Notes: generated by a model from the letters alone, not told the origin. Shown: positions 24,229 to 62,241, counted from the first letter of the stretch. The stretch: 62,241 nt of DNA from a virus (IMGVR_UViG_3300037485_001606:1-62241), one strand, 5' to 3'. A program made the numbers and translations.

Positions 24229-24237
24229 AAGAACACT

Positions 24238-43960: not shown

Positions 43961-44013
43961 TTGACGCCCTTGGAAAGTAGTGTACACTAAATGCACGTTT
44001 AAAGAAAGGATAG
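43961..44013 (+). promoter_or_regulatory. Sigma70-like promoter and RBS for the replication operon (divergent from the helicase gene)
   Basis: TTGACG-16 nt-TACACT; palindrome TAGTGTACACTA over the -10; AGAAAGGATAG RBS. Confidence 0.55.
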
Positions 44014-44020
44014 CGTAAAC

Positions 44021-44350
44021 ATGGCAACAGTCTATATTGTTCAAGAGATGCCGAATCACGATCTGGCCCCTGCAATGAAGTACGGTGAGATGAAAGTCTT
44101 GCTTCCTCCGCATACACAGATCGCATTTAGCACTGCCCCCACCATACGAAGCTTGCGCCATAAACTGCGTAACTTCTCTGACGATGATTTCCTGCTTCTG
44201 GCAGGAGACCCCGTAGCAATAGGCTTGGCCTGCTCTATTGCTGTATTTTTTAATAGTGGCCGCTATACAGCGTTGAAGTGGGACCGCCGCGAACGTATGT
44301 ACATCCCTGTCAAAATTGACATCACCCAGAAAGGAGAAAGCGATGAGTAA
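44021..44350 (+). CDS. Conserved-type hypothetical protein (109 aa)
   Basis: VYIVQE..DDFLLLAGDP..LKWDR; strong RBS. Confidence 0.8.
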   Translation: MATVYIVQEMPNHDLAPAMKYGEMKVLLPPHTQIAFSTAPTIRSLRHKLRNFSDDDFLLLAGDPVAIGLACSIAVFFNSGRYTALKWDRRERMYIPVKIDITQKGESDE

Positions 44351-44900: not shown

Positions 44901-44913
44901 AGGAAATTGAATC

Positions 44914-45690: not shown

Positions 45691-45695
45691 GTTTA

Positions 45696-45770
45696 GGGGC
45701 CGAAAGCGGATGCTGGCACAAACACCCCATAGGCAGTCAGAGACGACAGCCAGTGCAGCGAGTAGGCCCC
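45696..45770 (+). ncRNA. Candidate structured RNA with a loop-E-like internal loop upstream of the primase
   Basis: GGGGCC/GGCCCC stem, GAAA opposite GAGTA, inner TGCTGGC/GCCAGTG stem. Confidence 0.5.
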
Positions 45771-45789
45771 ACCTTCCATAGAGAGTTGT

Positions 45790-47322: not shown

Positions 47323-47579
47323 AAAAATGGGACGGTTTTGATGAGGCCATTATTGGCCCCGCTATGGTCTGGGCTCGAAGAGGCGGCCAGATTGAGATTT
47401 TGGTTTACAACGGCGAAATCATCCGCAATATCCTGATGTCTCGGGACGGCATGGAGTTTTCGGAAGCACGGGAGTTCATCGAGTTCAACCTTGAAGGGGC
47501 GTACATCGGCATAGATGGCCCGCTTCTGGTCTGGCCCCACGATATGTATAGAGTGACCAACCATGACACCGAGCATTGA
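47319..47579 (+). CDS. Conserved-type hypothetical protein (86 aa)
   Basis: DGFDEAIIG..EAREFIEFNLEGAYIG; TTG start overlapping the primase stop. Confidence 0.7.
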   Translation: MKKWDGFDEAIIGPAMVWARRGGQIEILVYNGEIIRNILMSRDGMEFSEAREFIEFNLEGAYIGIDGPLLVWPHDMYRVTNHDTEH

Positions 47580-50927: not shown

Positions 50928-50955
50928 GAAAAAGGGCCCCGAGGGGCCCTTTTTC
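50928..50955. terminator. Bidirectional terminator between convergent blocks
   Basis: Perfect 13-bp inverted repeat GAAAAAGGGCCCC-ga-GGGGCCCTTTTTC. Confidence 0.9.
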
Positions 50956-51244
50956 ATTTGAACAGATTCTTTATCCGTTCCCAGAGAGTGAGAGGTCTCA
51001 GGTCCTCCCACAGATCGAGCTGGCGCAGGGTGAAGAGGTATTCCCCCTTGCCCTTACCAGCGACACGCTCCGCATCCAGTTGCTGGCGGTTGGATGCCAG
51101 ATACAGTGCCGCGCGGCGCACGACAGAGGACTGCAGACCAGTCCATTCCGCCAACTCCGATGTCTTGCCCTTGTAGTTGTGCGCACGTAAAGCAGCAAGG
51201 ACCGCGGTCCGCGCGTCTTCAGGCCTGACCCGCGTAGCGTTCAT
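50954..51244 (-). CDS. Putative winged-helix DNA-binding protein (96 aa, MNATRVRP...)
   Basis: TSELAEWTGLQSSVVRRA HTH-like pattern; TGATG coupling. Confidence 0.6.
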   Translation of the reverse strand: MNATRVRPEDARTAVLAALRAHNYKGKTSELAEWTGLQSSVVRRAALYLASNRQQLDAERVAGKGKGEYLFTLRQLDLWEDLRPLTLWERIKNLFK

Positions 51245-51411
51245 CAAAACCATCCAAACCAGATGCCCGTGCCGTGAATCCAAGCGATTGGAAACAGCAG
51301 AGCCCCAGCGACCAGAAAGCCCCAAGAGGCGGTTTTAAGGCAGACCACGACATGGGTGATCCACGCCAAGACAACCCAAGCCACACCCACAGTACCAAGT
51401 AAGCCGCTCAT
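51244..51411 (-). CDS. Small membrane protein (55 aa, MSGLLGTVGVAW...), not in the ORF track
   Basis: Two hydrophobic segments; start and stop overlap both neighbours. Confidence 0.7.
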   Translation of the reverse strand: MSGLLGTVGVAWVVLAWITHVVVCLKTASWGFLVAGALLFPIAWIHGTGIWFGWF

Positions 51412-51932
51412 CGTGCATTCCCCTCAAGGCGGTCAGCCACCAGTTTGGCGTAACCAGAGATGTCCACCCAGTGGTCCGATTTGTCAGGGTTGCCGTTGAT
51501 GATGCGCCCAAGCTTGTGGATGATCATGTCAATGGCTTCACGCTGGTCAAAGGCCAAAGGCGTGCTGCGTATGGCGATGTAGTTGTGCACCAAGCGTTTG
51601 AGCATTTGCATGATCTCTGCGCCTTCAATAAACTTGCCGTAGTCCTTGGCCCGCGCATCGAGGACCGCGTCCACATCCGTGTTGTTCTCGTCGTACTTCA
51701 AAATGCCATGTTTCAAGCCTTCCTTAACGTAGTCCTCCAATGGGACGCCCAGCTTCTTTGCAATCTCCACTTGGTTCTTTGTCACGGTGACCTTGCGTTT
51801 GCCTTCCTTTATTTTTCTGCGTAGTGCGTAGATGTAGCTGATGGATACGCTTAGCGCGTCAGCAACTTCCCTTGCCGTGGCAGTGGGGTTGTTGCGTATG
51901 TATTCCGCTGTAGTGACTTTGGTCTGTTTCAT
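51408..51932 (-). CDS. HTH + scaffold-tail-like motif + DUF6378-like (nucleotide-modification-associated) domain protein
   Basis: AREVADALSVSISYIY; QVEIAKKLGVPLEDY; RAKDYG..HKLGRII.G..DHWVDISGYA. Confidence 0.75.
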   Translation of the reverse strand: MKQTKVTTAEYIRNNPTATAREVADALSVSISYIYALRRKIKEGKRKVTVTKNQVEIAKKLGVPLEDYVKEGLKHGILKYDENNTDVDAVLDARAKDYGKFIEGAEIMQMLKRLVHNYIAIRSTPLAFDQREAIDMIIHKLGRIINGNPDKSDHWVDISGYAKLVADRLEGNAR

Positions 51933-51941
51933 AAAAACTCC

Positions 51942-52130
51942 TTATAAAAATGCTTCTTCATAATCTTCTAACGAACTGGGGTTGGTGGCCTTTACTTGCT
52001 TGGGGAACCTCTTGGGGTCCAATCGCTCAAAAGGCCACCACGCCATGAGCTCCTCTTGTGACAAAGGTCTGGTGTTATCAGTGCAGGGAGTCAAAGGCTT
52101 TATCCCACAAGATGTCTGAGTATTTTTCAT
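51942..52130 (-). CDS. Hypothetical protein (start uncertain)
   Basis: Fills the gap; WWPFER..EEAFL. Confidence 0.5.
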   Translation of the reverse strand: MKNTQTSCGIKPLTPCTDNTRPLSQEELMAWWPFERLDPKRFPKQVKATNPSSLEDYEEAFL

Positions 52131-52272
52131 TTAGTTCTTCTACCTGTTCGTCTGTTAGCGACGTGCCGTCTTCAAATGTGCAATCAGCAAAGCAAGCATC
52201 GCTGAAGTCTGGGTAATCCCAAGCATGAACGTCTTGCACATTGGCTTCTACTTTTCTTCCATTGAGTTCCAT
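52078..52272 (-). CDS. Small acidic protein (64 aa, MELNGRK...)
   Basis: AGGAG RBS; DYPDFSDA..LTDEQVEELN. Confidence 0.65.
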   Translation of the reverse strand: MELNGRKVEANVQDVHAWDYPDFSDACFADCTFEDGTSLTDEQVEELNEKYSDILWDKAFDSLH

Positions 52273-52283
52273 TTCTTTCTCCT

Positions 52284-52754
52284 TTATGTTGTTTCCAAAA
52301 TAACCCTTGCTCGTTTCGACGTGATGGTTTTCTCCACCATCCTGATGGCTGCTTCCAGCTCTGCTATGGTGCATGCATCCAACTGAGCGTCATGGACTTC
52401 CATGGCCAGATTGAAAATGGTGAGTTCGGGTCCGCGCAAAATAAACTTGCCAGTCTCCGCACCTCGGCGTCCCACCGCCAGAAGTGCGTCTTGCGCGGCC
52501 CGAATCTCATTCTCCCAATCGTCACCAATGCGCATGAGTGACAGCGCCTCGGTGATGTTGAACGCACCAATCAAGACATCAATGTCTTCGCGCGTACCGA
52601 TGCCAAGGCGTACGGTCTCCAAAGCTCCATGGTTCCTGATCTTCAGTGTGGTGCCAGCATTCACTGACCCCACACGTTTAAGACCACTGGAAACAAACAG
52701 CATGGTGTCCAGAATCAAGCCCCGCGGACGGTACTTACTTCGCTTCTTCATCAT
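52284..52754 (-). CDS. Conserved-type hypothetical protein
   Basis: KKRSKYRPR basic N-terminus; HDAQLD. Confidence 0.75.
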   Translation of the reverse strand: MMKKRSKYRPRGLILDTMLFVSSGLKRVGSVNAGTTLKIRNHGALETVRLGIGTREDIDVLIGAFNITEALSLMRIGDDWENEIRAAQDALLAVGRRGAETGKFILRGPELTIFNLAMEVHDAQLDACTIAELEAAIRMVEKTITSKRARVILETT

Positions 52755-53142
52755 TTTCCTCTTCTCGAATCACATCCTGCAGGTGGCCATGCATGCGCAC
52801 GGACATGTCGAATAGTTCGTTGATGGACGCCATCAGCTTGTTCTGGCGCTCGCGCCGCGTCTCCATCCAAAAGGACTTGCAGGTGGTCATCGAGCCCATG
52901 CGCAGCTTCAGGATGACTTTCGGGCCCTTGTCCTCTTCGTCCCCTTCATCCATCTCCGGGTCATACTTCATGTTGTTCATGCGAACCATGTAGACCACGC
53001 GGTCATACAGGTCAGAGACTGTCTGGGACAGGTACTCGGACCGCTCACGGCGGATGTCATTCATTTCCAGAGGAGGGATGACCACTTCTGCCTGCGCATC
53101 GAGTTCTTCAATGATGATGTGGATGTTGTCTTCAATCTTCAT
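52735..53142 (-). CDS. Hypothetical acidic protein (MKIEDNI...)
   Basis: Tiles between neighbours on the minus strand. Confidence 0.65.
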   Translation of the reverse strand: MKIEDNIHIIIEELDAQAEVVIPPLEMNDIRRERSEYLSQTVSDLYDRVVYMVRMNNMKYDPEMDEGDEEDKGPKVILKLRMGSMTTCKSFWMETRRERQNKLMASINELFDMSVRMHGHLQDVIREEENDEEAK

Positions 53143-53386
53143 GCTGTTCTTTCGTTTCTGCGGTCTCCACCACGCCATAGATGTCCTCGTAGCTGACGCG
53201 GTGACCGCGGACCGCGGCTTCTGCAATCAGTTTGCGGGCACCGTCCGGCAGCATGGTCTGCTCGCGTAGTTCGTAGTGCCCCACGTTGCCTTGGGTGATG
53301 CCCAACATGTCAGCAAACTCTTGCTGGGTCATGCCCATGCGCTGGCGGATTTGCTTAAGTAGGTTGGTTTGCGGTAGTTCTTGCAT
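53132..53386 (-). CDS. Cro/CI-type (XRE) HTH regulator
   Basis: LKQIRQRMGMTQQEFADMLGITQGNVGHYE. Confidence 0.85.
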   Translation of the reverse strand: MQELPQTNLLKQIRQRMGMTQQEFADMLGITQGNVGHYELREQTMLPDGARKLIAEAAVRGHRVSYEDIYGVVETAETKEQHED

Positions 53387-53540
53387 TTTTGGCGCTCTTT
53401 ATGTCAATGTACTTTTTGTTGCTGCTTTTAAGAATGAACATGTGGTCATCATTCTTTTTGATTTCATCCACGATTTCCCCATCAGGGGCTATCAGCACCC
53501 AGTGCACGGAGCTCCGTTCTTTCCATCTCATTGGTTTCAT
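53355..53540 (-). CDS. Hypothetical protein (61 aa)
   Basis: ATGA coupling with the upstream gene. Confidence 0.6.
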   Translation of the reverse strand: MKPMRWKERSSVHWVLIAPDGEIVDEIKKNDDHMFILKSSNKKYIDIKSAKNARTTANQPT

Positions 53541-53731
53541 TTGATTTTGTTTCCGTAGTTGTCGAATGTCCGAGGCCGTAGCGTAAACAGGACATTCAGG
53601 TTTTCCTTTGCTTCCTCTTCAGTGGCCCCGTAACCTATTGGGTCTCCGGGTTCGTAATCTTGGGCCGCGGCCCGCCAGTCGAACTTCGTGACAGGGATAG
53701 GCGGAGCAACATATTCGGTGATGATCTTCAT
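53537..53731 (-). CDS. Hypothetical protein (64 aa)
   Basis: PPIP..FDWRA..YEPGDPIGYGATEEEA; ATGA coupling. Confidence 0.7.
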   Translation of the reverse strand: MKIITEYVAPPIPVTKFDWRAAAQDYEPGDPIGYGATEEEAKENLNVLFTLRPRTFDNYGNKIK

Positions 53732-53991
53732 GTGAGGTTTCCGTCTCGTTCAAAACAGGGCTTCTTGCACGTCCTGTACTGTTGGCAACATTCCACGGGT
53801 GGTGTGCAAGTGTGGATATCTGCAGTGATCCCCTTGAGGCGTTTCCCGCAACGCGGGCAGAAGTTGCGCTCTTGCTTGGGGTTCAGTATCGAGGCCAGCA
53901 CCTCCAGCATCGAGGCAGCCTCAAGGATGATTTCCTTTGGGCAGTGCTCATGGTTGACGCGAAGGTCTTGGATTAGTTCAGGCAGCGTCAT
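53728..53991 (-). CDS. Cys-rich modular hypothetical protein
   Basis: ERNFCPRCGKRL..HTC..CCQQYRTC; ATGA coupling. Confidence 0.65.
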   Translation of the reverse strand: MTLPELIQDLRVNHEHCPKEIILEAASMLEVLASILNPKQERNFCPRCGKRLKGITADIHTCTPPVECCQQYRTCKKPCFERDGNLT

Positions 53992-54134
53992 GTGTTCTTC
54001 TCCTTCAATTTTGCTTCCGTCAATCCCGTGGCAACCCCAACATTTTTCCCAATTGATGCCGTGTGTATCTCTGCGACTTCTTCATCCGTCAACCCAATCC
54101 ATGTGCGCTCGGATATCGGTGTGGTTGGAATGTC

Positions 54135-54482
54135 TCATTTCTTGAACGTAGGTAACGGGAACCAGTGGTCGAAAAACTTGTCAGCCGGGTAGTAGTGCCC
54201 CTTCTGGGCTACGTTGCTGCGTTTGTTAATCAGCCACATACTGACACCTCGCGGGGTATGTTCGTCTATCGGTATCCAGTGGCAGGCAGGGGCAACCGCA
54301 GCAGCACCGTCAGCAGTTATCTTGTGTTCCTGTATAGGTGCGTTAAACATAGTTGCACTAAACGAATCCAAGATTTTTGCTTTGAGTTCTTCGCGCTCAC
54401 CTTCTGGAAAGTCTTGAACTACGTTGTTTAGTATTTCCATAACGTCCTCAACCATTTGTTTTGGGGTAATGATGCTGCTCAT
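54135..54482 (-). CDS. DUF551-like protein (115 aa, MSSIITP...)
   Basis: WIPID..P....HWFPLP motif; ATGA coupling at 54479-54482. Confidence 0.65.
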   Translation of the reverse strand: MSSIITPKQMVEDVMEILNNVVQDFPEGEREELKAKILDSFSATMFNAPIQEHKITADGAAAVAPACHWIPIDEHTPRGVSMWLINKRSNVAQKGHYYPADKFFDHWFPLPTFKK

Positions 54483-54769
54483 ACTATTTTGTTTCCGTAG
54501 TCGTCGAATGTTCGTCTGTTCGGTGGGCAGCAAGTGTGAAGGCTGACCGGGCCAAGCGCACCCATAAGTCGAGTCCCGCAGCGGTGGCAGAAGTTGCGCT
54601 CCTCTATCTGTGCTTGCAACTGCCCAAAGTCCGACACTGCTTGCAGATGTGCTTCTGCCTCTGGCTGTGCCAATGCTTCTTCTATTGCGGTGCGTAATGC
54701 TGTGGGGTACACAAAATTGCCTGATACAAGCCAATTAAGCGTCATGCGTAGTGCTTTTGTTTTAGTCAT
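54479..54769 (-). CDS. Modular hypothetical protein with CxxC motif
   Basis: ERNFCHRCG; shares modules with neighbouring genes. Confidence 0.65.
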   Translation of the reverse strand: MTKTKALRMTLNWLVSGNFVYPTALRTAIEEALAQPEAEAHLQAVSDFGQLQAQIEERNFCHRCGTRLMGALGPVSLHTCCPPNRRTFDDYGNKIV

Positions 54770-55230
54770 GAGTTCAACTCCTTCAGCTTGGCTTCGATGG
54801 CTTTGCCAAATGTCAAATATTGCATTGAATCAACTTGTTTATGTGTCTTAAATATCTCATCATCCGTAAGCCCAACCCACTGCTTCAAAGGTATCCCGCT
54901 GGGGTGCTGGTCATCTACCACAGTGACTCTGTAAACAGGCTCCTGCTGTGCTAATGCTGCTCTTGTCTGCTTTGTAATTCGCTCCGCATCTTCTGCAAGT
55001 GTCTTTGCTTTGATGGGGCTATAGGGGCTTTTGTAACTGCACTTCGGGCAAACCAGCCATTCTGTAAGCGGCTCCTGCTCTACGCTATCGCTGGGTGCTG
55101 CCAAGGCTTCTTCGCCCGCTGCAATGGCTGCTGCCTGCTTAGCAGCCATTGCAGCATTTAACTTGTAATTACCTGAATGTTCGTACAGCGCCGCAAGCGT
55201 CATGCGTAGTGCTTCACGTTCTTTAGTCAT
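54766..55230 (-). CDS. Modular hypothetical protein
   Basis: CPKC; WVGLTDDEI..AIEAKLKELN end. Confidence 0.7.
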   Translation of the reverse strand: MTKEREALRMTLAALYEHSGNYKLNAAMAAKQAAAIAAGEEALAAPSDSVEQEPLTEWLVCPKCSYKSPYSPIKAKTLAEDAERITKQTRAALAQQEPVYRVTVVDDQHPSGIPLKQWVGLTDDEIFKTHKQVDSMQYLTFGKAIEAKLKELNS

Positions 55231-55520
55231 CAGAATCCCCTGCTTGGTAGTTTCATTGCGTCTTGCGACCCGGGGCGTATTTGCTGGAGTACTTCACCAT
55301 CGCCCGTGCGGTAGGTGGTCCTGTCCCAGATGTTGGATTTGTTGGGGAGGGCAGCGCCTTTGAGTTTTGGCATCAGGACAGGACCCCCTCGGACGTACCG
55401 GACAGGGTTTTTGTCATTAAGAGGTGCCAAGGCATGCGCTGGGTTGTGGCGGTTCTCGCGTAACACGGTGCGGGTGCGCTCAGCAATGGTGAGCTTTGAT
55501 TTGTCGAGCGGTTTTGTCAT
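55230..55520 (-). CDS. Hypothetical protein (96 aa)
   Basis: RPGSQDAMKLPSRG end; TGATG coupling. Confidence 0.7.
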   Translation of the reverse strand: MTKPLDKSKLTIAERTRTVLRENRHNPAHALAPLNDKNPVRYVRGGPVLMPKLKGAALPNKSNIWDRTTYRTGDGEVLQQIRPGSQDAMKLPSRGF

Positions 55521-55522
55521 GG

Positions 55523-55798
55523 TTAGTCTTCAGAGTGGTCAGCGACCGATGTTTCAATCTCACCGATCATGGAATCGCGCATCACGGGGGCAAGGTCCAC
55601 GTCAGAGTTGGGGAGGTAGGCATGTTGTAGAGACCATGTGGCCGGGTAGTCGGGCTCTAATTGCAAGCCGGTGCCCCTTTCGCGTGCGCCGCGGTCCGCG
55701 GGTTCGTATTCAAACCAGCAGGTCAGATAGCAGTTGAGCTCGTCACAGTCGTAGTCGTACGACAAGAGGCCGTCATCAGAGTGGTCGGGGGATTTCAT
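55523..55798 (-). CDS. Acidic hypothetical protein (91 aa, MKSPDHS...)
   Basis: GGAG RBS; EYEPA.RGARE.GTG.QLEPD. Confidence 0.65.
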   Translation of the reverse strand: MKSPDHSDDGLLSYDYDCDELNCYLTCWFEYEPADRGARERGTGLQLEPDYPATWSLQHAYLPNSDVDLAPVMRDSMIGEIETSVADHSED

Positions 55799-55986
55799 AA
55801 GAATCTCCGGAAAAAGGTGGACAGGAGGCTGGGAACCACGGGGGCGGAGATTAGAGCGGTTTGCAAGTTGTAAGCACCGCGGCTCGGGGACCACGCTTGT
55901 TTTGGAAGGTACAGGAGGCCTATCTTGACCTTGCCTGTGTTGTAGGGGGTCACAGAACGGGTTGTAGGGGACTTATTGCATGACAT
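55795..55986 (-). CDS. Hypothetical protein (63 aa)
   Basis: PYNTGKVKIG.LY motif; tiles with neighbours. Confidence 0.65.
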   Translation of the reverse strand: MSCNKSPTTRSVTPYNTGKVKIGLLYLPKQAWSPSRGAYNLQTALISAPVVPSLLSTFFRRFL

Positions 55987-56209
55987 GGTAGCTACCCTCC
56001 CCGATTGAACGATAGACGGAGTCTAGGCCCTCTAGGAGGTGTTCTAGGGGCAGTCCCATGGCCTTGGACAGGACAGCGGTGGCTGTTAGCACGGTTAGCA
56101 GGGTATGCATGGGGGTACGGTCATCGGTTTGTAGCTCGTTCAGGAGTTCTACTGCCTCGGTTATGCTGGCCGTCATCAGGTCTTTTAGTTGCTTGTCAGT
56201 TACGCTCAT
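55973..56209 (-). CDS. Hypothetical protein (78 aa), first gene of the leftward block
   Basis: Preceded by AGAAAGGATAG RBS and a promoter. Confidence 0.75.
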   Translation of the reverse strand: MSVTDKQLKDLMTASITEAVELLNELQTDDRTPMHTLLTVLTATAVLSKAMGLPLEHLLEGLDSVYRSIGEGSYHVMQ

Positions 56210-56278
56210 TGCTCTATCCTTTCTTTAAGTTGCACGGAGTGTGGAAGAATTATAAGCGGTACTAGTATTACAGCGCAA
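56210..56278 (-). promoter_or_regulatory. Leftward sigma70-like promoter and leader
   Basis: Minus strand TTGCGC-18 nt-TATAAT (56278-56249), then CAAC..AGAAAGGATAGAG. Confidence 0.65.
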
Positions 56279-56280
56279 GT

Positions 56281-56580
56281 GCGCAAAGTGGTTGATTTTG
56301 TAGGGGTTTACCCTAAAGAGAGGGCGGTTTTGTAAGTTACGAGTAAGGCTATATATACTTTCTCCAGAAAAAAAGAAATTTTAAAAAAAAAAAACCATTT
56401 GGGCGTAATAGACGTAATAGACGTGAGAGTTACTGTTTATGCGGGTTGTGAGTACGACAGTACATCACAGTAGTGAATTAGGAGTAATGTTTTTTGACAA
56501 TTATCAGGGGAGCTCCGCGAGATACTTTTTGAAAAAACTTTTTCTTTTTTTAGTAGAAAAAAGTCTATAGAGGGGATTGC
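56281..56580. other. AT-rich non-coding region between divergent blocks; candidate replication origin
   Basis: Long A and T tracts, CGTAATAGA tandem repeat, no convincing ORF. Confidence 0.4.
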
Positions 56581-56638
56581 ATTGCTCTGGCCTAACACCC
56601 CTGTTACACTAGGTTCAACCGAGTACAGGACCGCACAC

Positions 56639-56854
56639 ATGTTTCAAATTGATTCCAATATCGCCATGCCGATGGGCAGGACGAAGTACCCGTTCAGCGA
56701 CATGCTGCCCGGCGATTCGATTCTGTTTGTCAACGCAAGGCAGGCCAACAGCGCTCGGGTATCCGCGCTGCGCTTCGTGCGCTCGCATGCCCCTGACTGG
56801 CATTTTCAATTGCGCCGGGTAGAGAACGGCTGGCGACTGTGGAGGATTGCCTAA
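56639..56854 (+). CDS. Small putative DNA-binding protein (71 aa, MFQIDSN...)
   Basis: AGGA RBS; KYPFSDM.PGDS..GWRLWR. Confidence 0.7.
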   Translation: MFQIDSNIAMPMGRTKYPFSDMLPGDSILFVNARQANSARVSALRFVRSHAPDWHFQLRRVENGWRLWRIA

Positions 56855-57528
56855 TGGCTAAGCGTGACGTGTGGAACGTGCCCCCAATCATCGGGGATAA
56901 GGCCCAGAAACGCATGTCGGGCCAAGTGGCCCCCTTGCGTAAGCAAAAGGTCCTGAATGGCAAGGAATGGAAGTTCGTAACGGAGCTGGTGACCGGTGAT
57001 GGCCGGGTCACGCTGCGCGAGGCCGCTATCCGGGCGGGGTATAAGGCGACCAGTGCTTCGGTGATGGCTTGGAAACTGACAAACCCTGAGATCAACCCCC
57101 ACGTGGTGTCCGCGATTCAGGCATACCGCGCGGAGCTCAACAGCAAGTACAACACCTCGTACGAGCGGCACATGCAGGACCTGCAGAAAATACGCGACAA
57201 GGCGCTTGACGCTGGCGCATATGCTGCGGCCGTCCAAGCAGAGTATCGCCGCGGTCAGGCATTAGGCACAATCTATGTTGACCGTAAAGAGATTCGCCAC
57301 GGCACCATTGATTCAATGTCAAAAGAGGAAGTTCAGCGCAAGCTGGATGAACTACGCGCCTTGTACGGCGGGCCCCCTCCAACGGCATTGATCGACGCCA
57401 CCACTGGCCAAGTGATTGAAAGTATTGACCGTGAAATTGACCCCGCTTTTGTCTCTCCAGTGGCACAACCTCCCCTCGATATCTTTGAACGCGACAACGA
57501 CTTGGGACCCGACGATGTCAACGCCTGA
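56854..57528 (+). CDS. terS: Terminase small subunit
   Basis: KEWKFV..EAAIRAGY..A.KL HTH, AAVQAE..RG...IYVDRKEI; GGAGG RBS and TAATG coupling. Confidence 0.75.
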   Translation: MAKRDVWNVPPIIGDKAQKRMSGQVAPLRKQKVLNGKEWKFVTELVTGDGRVTLREAAIRAGYKATSASVMAWKLTNPEINPHVVSAIQAYRAELNSKYNTSYERHMQDLQKIRDKALDAGAYAAAVQAEYRRGQALGTIYVDRKEIRHGTIDSMSKEEVQRKLDELRALYGGPPPTALIDATTGQVIESIDREIDPAFVSPVAQPPLDIFERDNDLGPDDVNA

Positions 57529-57937
57529 GGCGGCATTTGCCGCGCGCGTGCGTGACGGCCTGCGTTTGCTTGGTGTTGATACGGAGCGAATCGAAAACCG
57601 CGTCAATTTGGGAATATCAGATTTGCTGGTAGGCGCGGGTGATCGTTTTGTTTCTGTAGAGCTTAAGGCCGTCACGCGCGGACTAAAAGTATCGCTTCGA
57701 CCGCATCAAATTGCGTTTTTGACTCGCCACGCCTTGCGCGGCCGCCCCTGTTACGTGCTGGTCCACCACGTAGGCGCTATTGTCCGGCCGGGTATGGTCA
57801 TGCTTTACCACGGCAATCAGGCGCTCGCGCTCGCGGAACAGGGACTGCGCCTTGCGCCTGTGGCGTCATGGCCGAGTAGGGGCATGCCATGGCAAGAGCT
57901 GGCCGATATATTCTCAGGGAAAACCCCGATAAAATAA
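57515..57937 (+). CDS. PD-(D/E)XK nuclease (VRR-NUC/Holliday junction resolvase-like)
   Basis: PE..F, RIEN, GISDL, VELK, LRPHQ. Confidence 0.8.
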   Translation: MSTPEAAFAARVRDGLRLLGVDTERIENRVNLGISDLLVGAGDRFVSVELKAVTRGLKVSLRPHQIAFLTRHALRGRPCYVLVHHVGAIVRPGMVMLYHGNQALALAEQGLRLAPVASWPSRGMPWQELADIFSGKTPIK

Positions 57938-57938
57938 G

Positions 57939-58010
57939 TTGCGGCGCTGTTAATTTACCACTACAATAGTGGCACTGGTTTAAACCAGCAACCTAGAAAG
58001 GATAGAGAAA
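57939..58010 (+). promoter_or_regulatory. Early cassette 1: promoter, palindrome, RBS
   Basis: TTGCGG-17 nt-TACAAT; CTGGTTTAAACCAG; CAACCTAGAAAGGATAG. Confidence 0.75.
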
Positions 58011-58712
58011 ATGTTAAAAACTGTAGCAGTAACCGCTAACCGTAAAACCGGACCTATCGCTGTCACTTATCGCAGTGGCACCCATGAAACCTATGGCACG
58101 TGTCCAACATCTTGTAAGCTTCACCCCAAAAGTGAAACCGGCACGACCTTAATTGACGTGGAATATATGGGCGCCGTGGCGGACGCGGTGCCCCGTAATG
58201 GCTTGGCTTGGACTTATTCCCACTTTGCCGCGGAAGCTTTACCGACACCTAGGCACGGAAAGACCGTTTTTAACGTATCTTGTGACACTATGGCGGAAGC
58301 AGTGCGGGCTATTGAGCTTGGCCGCCCTTCGGTTTTTGCAGCACCAAAAGAACTGGCCGGTTCTTTCCCGCTGGTGTTTCAGGGCACAAAATTTGTTCAA
58401 TGCCCTGCTGACTTGTCCGAATCGTTCACTTGCGCCCAGTGTGGTGGTGGCCGTCCACTATGCGCCCGTGGTGACCGCGATTACGTGGTGGTTTTTGTTG
58501 CTCATGGAACCGGTGCCAAGCGTGTAGGCTCGGAGCAGGGCGGCGGCTGTTATGCGGCCAGTGGTCCGACCGCGATTACGTGGCACAACACCAAAAAAAC
58601 CGGCCTAGATAATGATTCCGATGCCTTGCGTCGTTTTGCTCGCTCACTGCCGCCCGGCTCACTTCTACGCCATCATGTCGCTGGTGATATAGGGAAAGAG
58701 ACCAGAAAATGA
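58011..58712 (+). CDS. Cys-rich gp88-like protein, putative metal/Fe-S binding
   Basis: NRKTGPI, TCPTSC, WTYSH, CPA..TCAQC..LC, AHG, GCYA, RHHVAGD. Confidence 0.65.
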   Translation: MLKTVAVTANRKTGPIAVTYRSGTHETYGTCPTSCKLHPKSETGTTLIDVEYMGAVADAVPRNGLAWTYSHFAAEALPTPRHGKTVFNVSCDTMAEAVRAIELGRPSVFAAPKELAGSFPLVFQGTKFVQCPADLSESFTCAQCGGGRPLCARGDRDYVVVFVAHGTGAKRVGSEQGGGCYAASGPTAITWHNTKKTGLDNDSDALRRFARSLPPGSLLRHHVAGDIGKETRK

Positions 58713-58774
58713 TATTTTTGGCTTTGGGTGTTTTTCTTTTACTGTGGTGGCTAATTGATTTATTTGATAAATAA
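58709..58774 (+). CDS. Possible 21-aa membrane peptide (MIFLALGVFLLLWWLIDLFDK)
   Basis: ATGA coupling; single hydrophobic helix. Confidence 0.45.
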   Translation: MIFLALGVFLLLWWLIDLFDK

Positions 58775-58798
58775 ACAGCACCGCTATTTAAATTGGTA

Positions 58799-58847
58799 TA
58801 TAATTTATTCACCGGGATAAACCGGCAACCCTGAAAGGATAGAGAAA
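58799..58847 (+). promoter_or_regulatory. Early cassette 2
   Basis: TATAAT; CCGG-gataaa-CCGG; CAACCCTGAAAGGATAG. Confidence 0.7.
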
Positions 58848-59807
58848 ATGGCACATATGATTGACACCACCACCGGCACGGCCGCTATTGCTTACGCTGG
58901 CATAACCCCATGGCATGGCTTAGGCCAAGCGTTGACGCCGGACGCCTCAATCGAGACGTGGACACGCGAAGCCGGACTAAATTACACCGTGCAGGAATCA
59001 CCGGTATTGTTTCAAACCGATGCAGCTTCAGTGCCTGAGGAATTCAAGGGGCGAAAGGTCCTACACCGTAGCGACACTGGCGGAGCATTGGCCGTGGTAT
59101 CGGACGGGTACCGCGTAGTGCAGCCTTCGGACGTTATGGGGTTTTTTGGGAAACTGGTAGAGCTGGGCGGCTTTCAGATGGAAACTGCAGGCGTTCTAAG
59201 TCATGGCCGCCGGGTTTGGGCGCTGGCCAAGGTCAATCAGGGCGCGGACATTGTCGAAGGTGACACCGTCCGGCCTTATGTTTTGTTGGGCACATCCTAC
59301 GACGGCACCATGGCCACAGTGGCAAAATTTACCAGTGTGCGCGTGGTGTGCAATAACACCATAACGGCCGCCCTAGGCCGTGAAAACGCGGGAACTGTCC
59401 GCGTTTTACATTCCGAGCGATTCAACCCGGACGCCGTCCGTTTAGAGCTGGGCATTGTGGGCGATAGTTGGGAGCGTTTTTTGGTGCAATCTCGCCGCTT
59501 GTCCACCGTGGCCATGCCAAAAGCCGACGCGGACGCTTTTGTCACTGCGCTATTGACGCCTTACCATAGTTCAAAAATGGAGCTTAATGACACTCGGGGA
59601 TATCGGCGCATCATGGAGCTGTTTAATGGCCAAGCTATGGGCGCAAGCATTCCGGGTGTCGCCGGTACGCGCTGGGCTATGCTTAACGCGGTGACTGAAC
59701 TAGTGGACCATGAGCGCGGCCGGTCCGCAAATACCAGACTTGAGTCGGCATGGTTTGGAACTGGTGCCGCGCTGAAGAATAAGGCGCTTGAACTACTTAG
59801 TGCTTAA
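58848..59807 (+). CDS. DUF932 (phage/plasmid TIGR03299-like) protein
   Basis: MAH..PWHGLG, ETAGVL..GRRVW, SYDGT, RVVCNNT, GTRWAMLNAVTE..DH. Confidence 0.9.
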   Translation: MAHMIDTTTGTAAIAYAGITPWHGLGQALTPDASIETWTREAGLNYTVQESPVLFQTDAASVPEEFKGRKVLHRSDTGGALAVVSDGYRVVQPSDVMGFFGKLVELGGFQMETAGVLSHGRRVWALAKVNQGADIVEGDTVRPYVLLGTSYDGTMATVAKFTSVRVVCNNTITAALGRENAGTVRVLHSERFNPDAVRLELGIVGDSWERFLVQSRRLSTVAMPKADADAFVTALLTPYHSSKMELNDTRGYRRIMELFNGQAMGASIPGVAGTRWAMLNAVTELVDHERGRSANTRLESAWFGTGAALKNKALELLSA

Positions 59808-60087
59808 CTATCGGATAACGGGAACCGATAGGTAATGCCTATCGAGGGGGAACTATGCAAAAAATGCATATCCCGCCCGGTTATGTTCACATTAGTAAAC
59901 CAGCCCCGCGGTCCCTGTCGCTTGACGCCTTGGACGTGGTGCGTGGTGCGTGGTCCGCGGCCCGTGGGCCGCGCTGGGCGTGGCTTGCAGCGTTAGTGAC
60001 CACTAACTTATCGTGGCGCGTGGTCTACTATCGATGGCGGGCCATCGATAGTCAAAATCAATCGGGCCGTGCCGCGGCCCGATTGAT
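59808..60087. repeat. Palindrome cluster 1
   Basis: Inverted repeats at 59826-44, 59956-73, 59992-60007, 60027-52 and 60057-87; CGTGGTG direct repeats at 59935-54. Confidence 0.85.
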
Positions 60088-60142
60088 ATAATAGTGGCAC
60101 TGGTGCAGGGCCCTGCACCGGGCAACCTGAAAGGATAGAGAA
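60084..60142 (+). promoter_or_regulatory. Early cassette 3
   Basis: Extended -10 TGaTATAAT; perfect palindrome GGTGCAGGGCCCTGCACC; CAACCTGAAAGGATAG. Confidence 0.75.
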
Positions 60143-60346
60143 ATGAATACTGTTTCAATTGGTTTTTACCGCGAAGACGGGGATTTTGCCGTGCTCGCCG
60201 CCCTAAATAACAATGACGAACATCTGCCCGATGATGCTTTTTTGTCGCTTATCGGAATGCTGCACGCGAGCTACAAAGTGTTAATTGATTCGCCCGTGAT
60301 TGTTGTTGACCGTCAAGATATCCCCGATTACGTAACCATTGAATAG
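60143..60346 (+). CDS. Small early hypothetical protein (67 aa)
   Basis: Own promoter and RBS cassette. Confidence 0.75.
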   Translation: MNTVSIGFYREDGDFAVLAALNNNDEHLPDDAFLSLIGMLHASYKVLIDSPVIVVDRQDIPDYVTIE

Positions 60347-60433
60347 TTGACATGAGCCCACGGGCTCATGCTATAATAGTCTCACTGCTACCGGCCGGTA
60401 GCAGTCAACCCTTAGAAAGAATAGCATCATGAC
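60344..60433 (+). promoter_or_regulatory. Early cassette 4 (near-identical to 60776-60865)
   Basis: TTGACA-19 nt palindromic spacer-TATAAT; 22-bp palindrome 60384-60405; AGAAAGAATAG. Confidence 0.85.
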
Positions 60434-60773
60434 AATCGAAACAGCAACCCCTACCAGCGCAGAGACTTTGGCCGCATTATTTGACGCGATGATTGACGCC
60501 GTGGCGGTGCGCGTGATGGTGCAGGTTCAAGCCAAAATCGAGGGCCTAGGTGCCAGCATGGATGAGGAAAAGATTAATTTAGTAATCGACCAGAAAATTG
60601 CAGACTTCGCGTACAACGACTTCGAGACCAAAGTTAACGACTGGGCAGAAGGCAATCTACAACAACAATTTGATAAGAACGTATTGGTCAACGTGGGCGA
60701 TATGGACGGCATTCACGACGCGGTAGTTGAAGTAGTGAGTGACATGAGTTTTGAGATACGCGTGAGCCGATAA
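60429..60773 (+). CDS. Small acidic early protein (114 aa)
   Basis: Own cassette; helical and acidic. Confidence 0.75.
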   Translation: MTIETATPTSAETLAALFDAMIDAVAVRVMVQVQAKIEGLGASMDEEKINLVIDQKIADFAYNDFETKVNDWAEGNLQQQFDKNVLVNVGDMDGIHDAVVEVVSDMSFEIRVSR

Positions 60774-60775
60774 AG

Positions 60776-60865
60776 TAGTTGACATGAGCCCACGGGCTCA
60801 TGCTATAATAGTCCCACTGCTACTAACCGGTAGCAGTTAACCCTTAGAAAGAATAGCATCATGAC
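60776..60865 (+). promoter_or_regulatory. Early cassette 5 (90-bp direct repeat of cassette 4)
   Basis: TTGACA 60779-84, TATAAT 60804-09; same spacer palindrome; differences mainly in the hairpin loop. Confidence 0.85.
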
Positions 60866-61130
60866 CAAAATCATCACCATCGACAGCAACCGTTATGCCT
60901 TACCAGAAGGCATGAGCTCCAAGGACCTTCAGGCTCTGGCCGGGTTCCTCGTCACTCTAACCAGAGTAGAGTACGAATATTGCTACACCGATGACAGCGC
61001 ATACTTTGCAAGCAGTGGAGCTCAGGTCAGTATCGGAACCCAGGAGCTGGTAACCAAGGCAGAAGCCAAAGCCCAGTCCACTGCAGGACGCACAGCATAC
61101 GAGGCAAAGAAGGCAACCGAACAGGCGTGA
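60861..61130 (+). CDS. Small early hypothetical protein (89 aa)
   Basis: Own cassette. Confidence 0.75.
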   Translation: MTKIITIDSNRYALPEGMSSKDLQALAGFLVTLTRVEYEYCYTDDSAYFASSGAQVSIGTQELVTKAEAKAQSTAGRTAYEAKKATEQA

Positions 61131-61183
61131 TATAATAGCGGTACTGGTAGCATCCGCTACCAGTACAACCTAGAAAGAATAGC
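61128..61183 (+). promoter_or_regulatory. Early cassette 6
   Basis: TGA stop doubles as the extended -10 TGaTATAAT; GTACTGGTAGC-atcc-GCTACCAGTAC; AACCTAGAAAGAATAG. Confidence 0.75.
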
Positions 61184-61387
61184 ATGAACCCACTTCACTA
61201 TCAGGCCAAGGTACTGGCTTCCGCCCTCCGTCTTTATGCACGTACAGGCATGAAGGCCAACTCAGCATATACACCCAGCGCGATGCTGGCCACTGCTGGC
61301 CGAATCACCGGCCAAGTGTTTAAACGGGGTCAGCATCTGGTAGCGGCAGATGCTCTAGCCAACTGGGTACGCACCCAGCACGACTAG
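61184..61387 (+). CDS. Small early hypothetical protein (67 aa)
   Basis: Own cassette; ALRLYARTGMK..ITG..FKRG. Confidence 0.75.
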   Translation: MNPLHYQAKVLASALRLYARTGMKANSAYTPSAMLATAGRITGQVFKRGQHLVAADALANWVRTQHD

Positions 61388-61398
61388 GCGAAGACTAC

Positions 61399-61537
61399 TA
61401 GGGCCACGGCCCTATCACCCTATCCTTACATCACGCTGACTGCTAGGGCCCACGGGCCCTAGCACGGCTCCCTTACGCTAGGCTGACGGCCCCGTCAGCC
61501 TATACCCAGTAGCTGGTGACCGGTAAGCCGGTCACCA
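61399..61537. repeat. Palindrome cluster 2, upstream of terL
   Basis: Four perfect inverted repeats: 61399-61414, 61441-64, 61479-61502, 61514-37. Confidence 0.9.
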
Positions 61538-61736
61538 TTCCCCTATGCCTATACACAGAGGACATCTAAGACAGGGGGAGGGCCATAAACAGCCCAGTAG
61601 CAATAGAGTTCAGGCCTGCCCTGATTTTTGCCATGGAATTTGCCCAAGAAAACCTGATCTTGTTTTCTGGATAGGCCCCCTTGTTTGCAGAAACCGATTA
61701 CCCGGTTAATATTAAAAAAATTCAAAACGTGGACCT

Positions 61737-62241
61737 ATGTACAACACCCTGCCCAAAGATGCCGAAGAAGAGATGCTCCGGCTCCAGCTTCGCCTGCAAC
61801 TACTCGATGCCCATGAGAAGTCAACGACGCACTTCCTAGATTTCTGTCGGTACGTGTGGCCCGAGATGCTCGTTGGGGAACACCACAGGATCATCGCTAA
61901 AGCCTTGGACCGCGTAGTGAGCGGCGAGTGCAAGCGTCTGATGATTGCGATGCCTCCCCGTCATGGGAAATCCCAGATGGGCAGCTACCTGTTTCCTGCT
62001 TACATCATGGGCCGAAAACCCGATGCAAAGCTCATTGTCGGTTCGCATACCGCGGACCTCGCTCAGCGCTTCGGGCGCATGATTCGTAACCTTGTAGAGG
62101 ACGAGAAGTACAAAGAGCTCTTCCCCGGTATGACCCTGTCTGTGGACTCTAAGGCTGCTGGTCGGTGGAACACGGCCCAAGGCGGTGAAGCCTTCTTCAT
62201 TGGTAAGGGCGGCGCGATGACCGGGCGCGGCGGTAATATTG
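61737..62241 (+). CDS. terL: Terminase large subunit, N-terminal part (continues through the terminal overlap into 1-1098)
   Basis: Translated by hand: MYNTLPKD..FLDFCRYVWP..HHRII..RLMIAMPPRHGKS (Walker A)..SHTADLAQRFGR; open to the window end. Confidence 0.92.
   Translation, partial: MYNTLPKDAEEEMLRLQLRLQLLDAHEKSTTHFLDFCRYVWPEMLVGEHHRIIAKALDRVVSGECKRLMIAMPPRHGKSQMGSYLFPAYIMGRKPDAKLIVGSHTADLAQRFGRMIRNLVEDEKYKELFPGMTLSVDSKAAGRWNTAQGGEAFFIGKGGAMTGRGGNI
62115..62241. repeat. Terminal direct repeat, right copy
   Basis: Identical to 1-127. Confidence 0.95.

Follow-up and report, generated by a model that had tools for sequence, protein, structure and literature searches.

The combination of promoter, hairpin and ribosome-binding site (RBS) has already been described in T4-like myoviruses as the promoter-early stem-loop (PeSL) cassette (Arbiol et al. 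2010, PMC2839356; Comeau et al. 2014, PMC4122927). A full-text search for PeSLs returned only T4-like or review contexts among the matches listed. The DNA that we analyzed (the window, 62,241 nt) is the complete 62-kb genome of an uncultured freshwater phage, whose nearest cultured relatives are HTVC023P-type pelagiphages with about 50% DNA polymerase identity. Directly 5' of the terminase gene it carries an array of six plus-strand genes (58011-61387), each behind its own leader (C1 to C6). We consider it probable (about 0.68) that these leaders are self-contained sigma70 expression units with a protective 5' hairpin and that they also provide patches of homology through which genes are swapped.

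Anatomy of the six leaders

All six leaders described in the earlier note are present. They are 50-90 nt long and share the same order of elements, namely a -10 box, a hairpin, a CAACC linker, AGAAAG(G/A)ATAG and the ATG, with the start of the hairpin coinciding with the predicted first transcribed base. The pattern AACC-N1-4-GAAAGRATAG gave six matches, all on the plus strand between 57990 and 61182, and none in 100 shuffles (0 expected); GAAAGRATAG is followed by the ATG after 1-5 nt in 6/6 leaders, so that a Shine-Dalgarno site and a start codon form the 3' end of the module. TATAAT is avoided outside the leaders in this 62-kb genome: its six copies on both strands (12.45 expected, sd 3.56) are the perfect -10 boxes of C2 to C6, C1 having TACAAT, and a sixth in the minus-strand leader of the gene at 56209. 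The extended -10 sequence TGNTATAAT has four matches, exactly C3 to C6 (0.92 expected), and every one of the five matches of TAYAATAG falls in the cassettes (1.40 expected). In 6/6 leaders the base 7 nt after the -10 box is an A, which is base 1 or 2 of the hairpin. The -10 box and the hairpin are separated by 7, 7, 7, 6, 6 and 4 nt from C1 to C6, where 7-9 nt had earlier been given for C1 to C5. Because the -35 boxes are either weak or at a distance of 19 nt, a generic two-hexamer promoter scan flagged none of the six leaders. The named hairpin formed in every leader (fold z-scores from C1 to C6 of -2.3, -1.8, -2.2, -2.8, -2.9 and -4.8), C2 being the weakest and marginal, with a stem of only 4 pairs. 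C3, C4 and C5 possess a second hairpin, overlooked in the earlier note, which follows the stop codon of the preceding gene; it is directly 5' of the -10 box in C3, whereas C4 and C5 have it in the spacer from TTGACA to the -10 box. No Rfam family matched 55800-62241 at E≤1.

Relatives were fetched with the DUF932 gene (cargo gene 2) as anchor, and a covariance model, R1, was run on the window and 80 related loci. It found 110 leaders, 110/110 on the plus strand, and its matches in complete relatives were restricted to about 3 kb. Within the window it recovered five of the six leaders at E≤0.01, missing C2.

Leader C1 (57940..58013, 40.6 bits with R1) consists of TTGCGG (57940-57945), a 17-nt spacer, TACAAT (57962-57967), a predicted +1 A at 57974, the hairpin CTGGTTTAAACCAG (57975-57988), CAACC (57989-57993) and GAAAGGATAG (57996-58005). 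It precedes cargo gene 1 (ATG at 58011; 58011..58712, 233 aa, DUF7227 / phrog_2554), which is conserved in relatives and belongs to family 1, found behind 18 leaders. In C2 (58799..58850), TATAAT (58799-58804) and a predicted +1 A at 58811 are followed by the weak hairpin CCGG-6-CCGG (58812-58825), CAACC (58826-58830), GAAAGGATAG (58833-58842) and the ATG (58848) of cargo gene 2 (58848..59807, 319 aa, DUF932 / phrog_1221), the conserved anchor gene. Between this gene and C3 lies a structured stretch without a convincing gene (59808..60058); its fold was computed over 59805-60092 (z -5.4), a span that includes the C3 upstream hairpin and -10 box, and the ORF at 59855-60091 had no family match.

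Leader C3 (60059..60145, 50.5 bits) comprises the upstream hairpin (60059-60085), TGATATAAT (60084-60092), a predicted +1 A at 60099, the main hairpin (60100-60121), CAACC (60123-60127) and GAAAGGATAG (60129-60138), ahead of the ATG (60143) of cargo gene 3 (60143..60346), a 67-aa ORFan and the single member of family 13; its only nucleotide match among the 80 relatives, in L150, stands behind a different promoter. C4 (60344..60433, 80.4 bits) is copy 1 of a 90-nt direct repeat, with TTGACA (60347-60352), the spacer hairpin (60351-60370), TGCTATAAT (60369-60377), a predicted +1 A at 60384, the hairpin (60384-60405), CAACC (60406-60410) and GAAAGAATAG (60415-60424). Its cargo gene 4 (ATG at 60429; 60429..60773, 114 aa) is an ORFan of family 5 with the direct repeat on both sides, and homologues occur in 4/80 related loci, each with a different hairpin in front. 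Copy 2 of the repeat, C5 (60776..60865, 76.7 bits), has TTGACA (60779-60784), the spacer hairpin (60783-60802), TGCTATAAT (60801-60809), a predicted +1 A at 60816, the hairpin (60816-60837), TAACC (60838-60842), GAAAGAATAG (60847-60856) and the ATG (60861) of cargo gene 5 (60861..61130, 89 aa), which belongs to family 0, the most conserved of the cassette genes (36 leaders, 15 hairpin variants). The TGA of TGATATAAT in C6 (61128..61186, 68.7 bits; TGATATAAT at 61128-61136) doubles as the stop codon of gene 5, and a predicted +1 A at 61143, a palindrome (61141-61166), AACC (61167-61170) and GAAAGAATAG (61173-61182) lead to the ATG (61184) of cargo gene 6 (61184..61387), a 67-aa ORFan of family 12 with no nucleotide match across the 80 relatives. 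The array is closed before the terminase gene (61737 onward) by a row of four perfect hairpins, each with a 4-nt loop and none with a T run (61398..61535, plus strand, z -6.9), and similar hairpins are found at the equivalent place in the relative L025.

Two further leaders had been reported as related. On the minus strand, 56207..56254 contains TATAAT (56249-56254), GAAAGGATAG (56214-56223) and the ATG at 56209, and on the plus strand 43961..44023 contains TTGACG (43961-43966), TACACT (43983-43988), GAAAGGATAG (44004-44013) and the ATG (44021) of a 109-aa gene (phrog_5888). The relationship stands for the RBS block and the promoter-like boxes and fails for the hairpin, which neither leader has (z 1.1 and 0.05, respectively), so that a leader can exist without one.

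We propose that each leader would be read by the host as a sigma70-type promoter relying on a perfect or near-perfect -10 box, helped by a TG extension in 4/6 and, in C4 and C5, by TTGACA placed 19 nt 5' of it. Transcription, presumably early, is predicted to start at the A 7 nt past the -10 box; no RNA run was found to contain this region. With such a start a G+C-rich hairpin would stand at the very beginning of the RNA, with 4-9 pairs in the folded RNAs (commonest, 9 pairs and a 4-nt loop) and 0-1 unpaired 5' bases. The rules of 5'-end-dependent decay, through RNase E and RppH, are known, and by these rules the mRNA should be protected by a hairpin-capped end. Next would come an unstructured CAACC linker and then AGAAAG(G/A)ATAG, which would place the ribosome 6-10 nt 5' of the ATG and whose probable pairing partner is a 16S 3' tail of the ...CCUUUCU type. 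The second hairpin of C3 to C5 may dampen read-through or make the upstream transcript more stable at its 3' end. The earlier proposal of a plug-in expression unit agrees at the sequence level with these features, considering the -10 consensus confined to leaders, the A 7 nt on, the covarying hairpin and the invariant RBS block.

Variable cargo and breakpoints at the leaders

Behind the 110 leaders stand 24 gene families, and the order of cassettes from the DUF932 gene to the terminase gene varies among close relatives. A near-identical C3-type leader was found before 4 families. HSP endpoints fall inside leaders in 91/120 cases, leaders being 23% of the region, and contigs of three metagenomes match the window through 60145/60146 and then show three different continuations. 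Breakpoints at gene borders are also expected from selection after illegitimate recombination. The earlier note had read the repeats as recombination joints and named the gene content between them as a test. Behind and between the leaders this content is highly variable among relatives, and homology breaks at the ATG, so that the reading holds as far as the sequences go. A deletion or circle between 60344 and 60776 left no joint in any assembled contig compared, and a scan with exact patterns detected this region in neither its intact nor its deleted form.

We also asked whether the leaders merely mark the joints, being selected expression signals only, with illegitimate recombination occurring anywhere and selection keeping the junctions at gene borders. 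In agreement with such a scenario, leaders of close genomes are more similar to their positional or gene orthologues elsewhere (0.78 on average) than to leaders of the same genome (0.63), which indicates that homogenisation is occasional, not pervasive. Moreover, the design recurs, spelled differently (TAAAAT, hairpin, AACC, AGAAAGCGAGAAAG), in a second clade, at 96 sites on the plus strand and 0 on the minus strand, which shows a functional constraint independent of shared descent. AGAAAG is the only part of the RBS common to both sequence dialects, which also supports the 16S-tail pairing proposed in the earlier note as a plausible idea. On the contrary, C4 and C5, which bracket gene 4 in one and the same genome, share 94% identity over 90 nt, and only 66-74% with the leaders of their orthologous genes. 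The strain of run X2 differs from the window at 10 positions in 751 nt (otherwise 98.7% identical), and 8/10 of these differences lie inside 16 nt (60353-60368) of the C4 spacer hairpin, where three pairs changed in a compensatory way. Homology with the window stops at 60141-60150, a 10-nt window at the ATG, in 15/21 close loci and reaches into gene 3 in 0/21. Finally, L208 and L213 have family 0, and L210 and L215 an unrelated gene of 102 aa, behind an identical hairpin and -10 box. The C4/C5 identity and the X2 patch show recent exchange from leader to leader, and we regard a purely selective origin of the breakpoints as doubtful.

These data are consistent with the leaders acting as patches for homologous recombination, because 20-90 nt of near-identical sequence are common to them, and we infer that recombination passes through the leaders and does not merely end there. 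ORFs would be replaced, gained and lost as units, with the ATG and the next promoter as borders.

Covariation of the hairpins

Results showed that pairing is kept in 95.4% of stem cells, compared with 62.0% for shuffles and 20-39% with the partner slid, and that changes on both sides occur in 168 cells against 44.6 in shuffles, with covariation at all 9 pairs, in an alignment that is fitted to R1's own structure and in which many rows are related. Column 1 of the stem is A in 55/66 distinct aligned leaders. A model-free count gave perfect stems with 7 or more pairs for 72/183 distinct leaders versus 26/810 random sites; 45-mers drawn at random from these G+C-rich genomes fold well too (-10.9 versus -14.9 kcal/mol). 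The excess of G-U/U-G over A-C/C-A cells (15 versus 1) points to RNA, the 15 G-U cells being mostly one inherited pair.

Could the hairpins act above all as terminators of transcription or as insulators, the role proposed for PeSLs, each gene being expressed from its own promoter only and the +1 position being incidental? The PeSL work reports that stem-loops cut lacZ read-through like a strong terminator (PMC2839356), and here the spacer hairpin is directly 3' of stop codons and four similar hairpins end the array. Like intrinsic terminators, the stems are G+C-rich, of 8-10 pairs with 4-nt loops, and lie between genes. However, the +1 hairpin is 3' of the -10 box, no T run follows any stem, CAACC or similar standing there instead, and a terminator scan found 0 at the leaders or the closing array, its 6 matches (6.9 expected) all being elsewhere. 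In addition, the hairpin starts at a fixed 4-7 nt past the -10 box in 6/6 leaders, a spacing that a terminator does not need, and we therefore hold a terminator role to be quite unlikely as the main function.

Even less probable is that the palindromes are DNA operators of a dimeric regulator, such as an early-gene repressor, or that the hairpin in the 19-nt spacer serves a MerR-like activator realigning the -35 and -10 boxes. The foot of the stem is indeed conserved (ACTG...CAGT; CACGG...CCGTG), and the spacer is 19 nt in 18/18 distinct TTGACN-TATAAT promoters, which is the geometry of MerR-type promoters. But the inner stem positions vary freely and stay complementary, with 43 different hairpins among the 72 stem-bearing leaders, a duplex site would favour neither strand and so predicts no G-U excess, and no MerR-like protein was found, the sole DNA-binding hint being a weak wHTH match (E 0.0036).

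Comparison with known systems

Stabilising stem-loops at the 5' end are known in bacterial mRNAs, for example in the ompA 5' UTR. As in ompA, the predicted transcripts of the leaders would start with a stable hairpin that leaves few or no 5' bases unpaired, and the RBS after it would be single-stranded; the ompA-type stabiliser lies within 0-2 nt of the 5' end, and this is also the case here if the start is the predicted A. The difference is that here the element is repeated and portable, before many unrelated phage genes, with a putative effect on decay.

The array also resembles an integron in its tandem single genes, mostly unknown and variable among relatives, split by imperfect palindromes of variable sequence and kept structure, but hairpins acting as folded single-strand attC-like sites for a site-specific recombinase in trans are extremely improbable, considering that the 77 ORFs scanned contain no integrase or recombinase (nor a phage RNA polymerase or sigma factor), as the earlier note's array without an integrase had it, that, in contrast to integron cassettes, each unit brings its own promoter, that breakpoints are at the ATG and the -10/-35 boxes and not inside the hairpin, and that the stems are variable and mostly perfect, without the bulged bases that define attC. 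Cassette exchange is, unlike in an integron, most simply explained by homologous recombination.

The closest likeness is with the PeSLs. Both systems are intergenic modules in which a sigma70-like promoter, here a putative one, is combined with a stem-loop, a Shine-Dalgarno site and an ATG, and both form clusters in a hyperplastic region of small ORFans where close relatives differ by indels and replacements, here with 24 cargo families, variable order and breakpoints at leaders; PeSL crossovers lie between the -10 box and the ATG. A stem-loop lying between -35 and -10 or just 3' of the -10 box corresponds to two of the five PeSL subclasses, and here the +1 hairpin is within or beside the promoter in 6/6 leaders, with the extra hairpin in C3 to C5. 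Several features differ. PeSLs reside in T4-like myoviruses and the present array in a 62-kb genome of another lineage, where a unit has up to two hairpins and the RBS block is itself a conserved repeat. The main hairpin here is predicted to be transcribed from +1, covaries and resembles an RNA 5' cap-hairpin more than a terminator. In PeSLs recombination between neighbouring modules gives mini-circles and deletions; here the evidence is indirect, namely a 90-nt repeat of 94% identity and a conversion patch. The best reading is that this leader array represents a PeSL-like system outside the T4-like phages.

Leader architecture in the phage genome

The 62,241-base IMG/VR record is rated 100% complete, with a terminal repeat of 127 bases, and its gene map was obtained by comparing 46 + 31 ORFs with PHROGs and Pfam. 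The large terminase gene starts at 61737 and, judging from PHROG matches of 168 aa (61737-62240) and 360 aa (16-1098), would run across the record ends to 1098. Structural, lysis and tail genes extend up to 41346 on the plus strand, followed by replication genes (helicases, primase, DNA polymerase I and exonuclease, 41367-50927), a minus-strand block of small genes without known function (50954-57675) and the six plus-strand cassette genes studied here (58011-61387). The window ORFs scanned with PHROGs and Pfam include no recognisable integrase, RNA polymerase or sigma factor, three proteins of 820-1130 aa having no assignment. Among deposited genomes the metagenomic phage DSL-LC04 is nearest (75% DNA polymerase identity), and among cultured phages the Pelagibacter phages HTVC023P and HTVC027P (46-51%). 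We also noted a 150-aa protein at 6985-7437, between the portal and head genes, that matches the co-chaperonin GroES (phrog_3188, E 3e-19). Four genes of 378-389 aa at 18990-25407 match RCC1-repeat/tail proteins (phrog_7220, phrog_4219); they form two adjacent pairs separated by a 589-aa gene (21326-23095, phrog_27463) and, from sequence, are probably duplicated receptor-binding tail fibres.

The six leaders (C1 to C6, before genes 1 to 6) were borne out in the window sequence as the earlier note had described them, each with a -10 box, a hairpin, a CAACC linker and an RBS block before the ATG. The pattern AACC-N1-4-GAAAGRATAG occurs six times, always on the plus strand (57990-61182), and had no match in any of 100 shuffles. 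GAAAGRATAG alone has two more exact copies, before 44021 (+) and 56209 (-), where related leaders had been proposed; the RBS block is indeed exact at both, while the hairpin is absent (z 0.05 and 1.1). As for the gene next to 44021, the minus-strand helicase ORF (547 aa) was probably called too long in the stretch 43934-44126, and an alternative start near 43934 (MDYFLNQ...) is preceded by AGAAAGAAAGAAAG; with that start, 43935-44020 would be a divergent promoter region common to the helicase and the 44021 gene.

The consensus -10 boxes are confined to the leaders as well. Considering both strands of the whole genome, TATAAT occurs six times against 12.45 +/- 3.56 expected (99 of 100 shuffles had at least six), and all six copies are in leaders, namely C2-C6 and the leader before 56209, C1 having TACAAT. 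This frequency of about half the expected one, with each copy in a leader, suggests selection against stray host promoters. The four matches of TGNTATAAT are exactly C3-C6 (0.92 expected), and the five of TAYAATAG are all within cassettes (1.40 expected). An A lies 7 nt past each -10 box (57974, 58811, 60099, 60384, 60816, 61143) and, in all six leaders, either opens the hairpin or directly precedes it. Folding from this predicted +1 to the ATG gave a hairpin and an open RBS in all six, with z-scores of -2.3, -1.8, -2.2, -2.8, -2.9 and -4.8 for C1 to C6. By their sequence, the leaders appear to belong to the extended -10 class, their -35 boxes being weak or 19 nt away. A generic two-hexamer promoter scan showed no excess and flagged 0/6 leaders, a generic terminator scan of the window showed no excess and none at the leaders, and Rfam had no match for the leader region.

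Two known kinds of hairpin were considered for these structures and dropped. RNase III stems require about 20 pairs, and by this rule the stems of 4-12 pairs are too short. N4-type hairpin promoters were discarded because consensus -10 boxes are present and no giant virion RNA polymerase was recognised, the three unassigned large proteins apart.

Two neighbouring stretches are also structured. Past the last cassette gene and ahead of the terminase region, 61398-61535 contains four consecutive perfect hairpins of 9-10 pairs with 4-nt loops (z -6.9) and no T runs, a similar set being found after the last cassette gene in relative L025; they could be a terminator/insulator array, a packaging signal or RNA 3' stabilisers. 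Downstream of the DUF932 gene, 59808-60058 is a strongly structured stretch of about 250 nt without a convincing gene, partly conserved in relatives, with several palindromes and GCGTGGT/C repeats at 59941-60024; the fold of 59805-60092, which takes in the start of leader C3, has a z of -5.4. This stretch could be an origin or packaging site. GCGTGGY was rejected as an iteron, as the genome has 27 sites against 21.6 expected, with no overall enrichment.

Relatives, dialects and covariation of the hairpins

A first motif scan of viral contigs returned mostly single chance matches, with only L024/L025 and L064 as relatives, and the exact 31-nt C4/C5 promoter-hairpin had 0 matches in viral contigs, a set that may lack near-identical records. 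Using the DUF932 protein (58848-59807) as query, we found 344 related stretches in viral contigs, of which the best 80 were fetched. The design was matched in at least 56 of these 80 relatives in a first sequence version, or dialect, and in 22 in a second one. Of the 80 loci, 58 (L128-L183, L191, L192) contain GAAAGRATAG, nearly always on the plus strand, and it is missing from the other 22 (L184-L190, L193-L207), which carry TTGACA, TAAAAT, a hairpin, (C/T)AACC and AGAAAGCGAGAAAG. The second dialect keeps the order of parts, with TAAAAT replacing TATAAT and AGAAAGCGAGAAAG replacing AGAAAGGATAG; its sites are on the plus strand in 96 cases and on the minus strand in 0, and 44 of 70 distinct leaders have stems of at least 6 pairs, allowing G-U. 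It may track a different host. AGAAAG is the sole RBS element common to both dialects, and likewise the sole one shared with the GAAAGAATAG variants of the window and with the leader of the helicase gene, the latter by direct reading of the sequence.

In the first dialect we counted 183 distinct leaders, whose upstream 45 nt fold at a mean of -14.9 kcal/mol, compared with -10.9 for random 45-mers (mean z of -2.7 against their own shuffles). Perfect Watson-Crick stems of 7 or more pairs were found in 72/183 leaders and in 26/810 random sites, and these 72 leaders include 43 different hairpins.

We also built a covariance model, R1, from seven leaders of identical geometry (alignment A2). From the window plus the 80 loci, R1 recovers 110 leaders, every one on the plus strand, including five of the six of the window (C2 was missed). 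In the complete relatives, R1 matches lie within about 3 kb (four at 30836-34022 in G002, three at 27830-30656 in G001). Results showed that 95.4% of the cells of the R1 alignment are paired, compared with 62.0% in column shuffles, none of 500 shuffles reaching the observed value, and that sliding the partner by 1-3 columns lowers pairing to 20-39%. Changes on both sides affect 168 cells (44.6 in shuffles), with compensatory change in 9/9 pairs; these figures come from an alignment fitted to the model and from related rows. Moreover, pairs 2-9 contain 15 G-U/U-G against one A-C/C-A, an excess that fits a sense-strand (RNA) structure better than it would a symmetric DNA site, although a single pair type makes up 14 of the 15 wobble cells.

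Some units contain a second hairpin. In C4 and C5, TTGACA and TATAAT flank a 19-nt spacer (promoters at 60347-60377 and 60779-60809) that is itself a hairpin, reaching from the -35 CA to the TG of the extended -10, and C3 has a 10-pair hairpin ending with the TG of its own extended -10 box. The window and the 80 relatives together have 18 distinct TTGACN...TATAAT promoters; the spacer is 19 nt in 18/18, with a perfect stem of at least 7 pairs and varied inner sequence in 15/18. The outer bases of the spacer dyad are conserved (CACGG...CCGTG) in the window and in relatives L128-L147. A 19-nt spacer is the geometry of MerR-type activated promoters, and no MerR-type regulator was found for these. 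The spacer or upstream hairpin comes directly after the preceding stop codon, with no T run behind. By analogy with the promoter-early stem-loop cassettes (PeSLs) of T4-like phages, it may attenuate read-through or protect the 3' end of the preceding transcript, as argued for PeSLs. In PeSLs, the spacer between -35 and -10 is the commonest stem-loop position (PMC2839356).

Cargo genes and joints at the leaders

The ORFs starting at the 110 leaders fall into 24 families, and the cassette order differs among loci, so that the variable gene content between repeats anticipated in the earlier note was indeed found in the relatives. Between DUF932 and the terminase, order differs even among loci whose DUF932 proteins are 84-90% identical, with only family 0 (window gene 5) nearly constant. 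Hairpins and genes are not fixed to each other: at the C3 position almost the same leader precedes four families (3, 4, 9 and 13, the last being window gene 3), one hairpin stands before families 2 and 7 and another before families 0 and 6, family 0 has 15 hairpin variants, and family 5 (window gene 4) has five different hairpins in five loci. Metagenome contigs added twelve more leaders, and there L208 and L213 have family 0, but L210 and L215 an unrelated 102-aa gene, behind an identical -10 box and hairpin. As to cargo function, PHROGs and Pfam yielded only DUF7227 and DUF932, ESM Atlas only viral hypothetical clusters (TM at most 0.51), and a PDB sequence search nothing below E 0.05.

We asked where homology to the window ends. 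In 15 of the 21 closest loci nucleotide homology stops at 60141-60150, the ATG of C3, and in the other six it stops near 59950-59970 (L132-L135, L137) or at the contig end (L144); it enters gene 3 in 0/21. Gene 3 has one match among the 80 loci, in L150, starting at the RBS block behind a different promoter type, and gene 6 has no nucleotide match among them. Where it picks up again, homology starts from the -35 or -10 box of the leader that follows. In 60000-61560, 91 of 120 HSP endpoints are inside leaders, which make up 23% of the stretch, many of the HSPs being leader-only matches. For PeSLs, crossovers are reported between the -10 box and the ATG (PMC2839356), a pattern mirrored here by the resumption at the next -35/-10 box.

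Recent exchange is visible within the window. C4 and C5 form a 90-nt direct repeat around gene 4, 94% identical and 432 nt apart; for either copy, identity to the leaders of orthologous genes from other genomes is only 66-74%. Overall, mean similarity is nevertheless higher between leaders of orthologues (0.78) than between different leaders within one genome (0.63), and homogenisation is thus episodic. The public runs listed for the region include none of RNA. Contigs of the public metagenome run X1, possibly the source sample, break at 60146, 60352-60373 and 60776-60813, which are shared leader parts. Up to 60145/60146 the contigs of X1, X2 and X3 agree with the window, after which they have three different continuations, one resembling family 3. 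A 751-nt X2 contig (lake water, another study) has 10 differences from the window, eight of them at 60353-60368, where three pairs of the C4 spacer hairpin are altered on both sides together with two loop bases, C5 being unchanged. In the +1 hairpins of this strain the differences are in loops (60110, 60825, 61153-61155) and none is in stems. The deletion or excision circle between 60344 and 60776 that the earlier note had envisaged left no joint in the contigs of four runs, from which rare forms drop out. An exact-pattern scan of metagenome contigs had 0 matches for the intact and deleted arrangements alike and was uninformative.

Proposed mechanism and comparison with known cassettes

We propose that the leader would be a portable expression unit. 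Host RNA polymerase would start at the A past the extended -10 box, and the message would begin with the hairpin, leaving no free 5' end, a feature that should slow mRNA decay by the rules of RNase E and RppH. The C/A-rich linker and the AGAAAG block would then load the ribosome. AGAAAG lies 6-10 nt from the ATG in the window, the spacing expected if the block were to pair with the six terminal bases of a 16S tail of the form ...CCUUUCU; ordinary TAAGGA or AAAGGAG sites are found at other genes of the phage. With leaders in common, ORFs can be replaced, deleted or added through recombination between leaders, expression staying intact.

The host was approached from several sides. For DSL-LC04, Gammaproteobacteria were predicted as hosts (PMC10611076). 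Relatives of the DNA polymerase occur in MAGs labelled Verrucomicrobiota, Rhodoferax, Armatimonadetes, Burkholderiales, Phycisphaerales and others, and its close relatives in loci L220-L238 are on contigs binned to MAGs of at least six phyla. We rejected these labels as host evidence, considering that they are inconsistent and look like phage contigs mis-binned into bacterial genomes. The 16S end motif is absent from the MAGs carrying the polymerase relatives. In the order of the Rhodoferax-labelled MAG, the 15-nt query that we take to be a 16S end with a TTTCT tail was found in 23 of 61 sampled genomes (controls 0), and the 12-nt 16S core in 44 of 61.

A joint reading would make the leader a lineage-wide adaptor for expression and exchange, an integrase-free phage counterpart of the integron, in which a structured 5' UTR shared by hundreds of freshwater phages would allow any small gene to be inserted through homologous recombination and to be expressed immediately. 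In this reading the +1 hairpin would be a self mark by which phage messages escape 5'-end-dependent decay during the destruction of host mRNAs, and AGAAAG would attract ribosomes by way of the very 3' end of 16S rRNA and not the usual CCUCC core. In this full form the reading is a long shot, to which we give a probability of roughly 15%. In addition, R1 is a search handle for pulling cargo genes from metagenomes, the leader a compact natural promoter-UTR part for expression work, and the leader set a clean comparative case of an RNA 5' hairpin maintained by compensatory change.

From sequence comparison, the system would work like PeSLs, whose structural and comparative features it shares. In the full-text literature, the phage-related papers on PeSLs concern, by their titles, T4-like or jumbo phages or are reviews, and as far as this literature search goes PeSL-type regulatory cassettes have been described only in T4-like phages. 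For the present phage group, full-text term searches of two papers returned no mention of promoters, and in the pelagiphage paper none of stem-loop, hairpin or intergenic. PeSL-like logic in a freshwater lineage that is abundant, uncultured and unrelated to the T4-likes suggests that promoter-leader linkers held in common offer lytic phages a general route for exchanging small accessory genes, among which anti-defence and host-takeover functions are usually found. Whereas PeSLs belong to T4-like phages, the leaders described here are from a lineage unrelated to them and also differ in build: the units have up to two hairpins each, the main hairpin is a predicted transcribed and covarying 5' element, and the RBS block is a conserved repeat.
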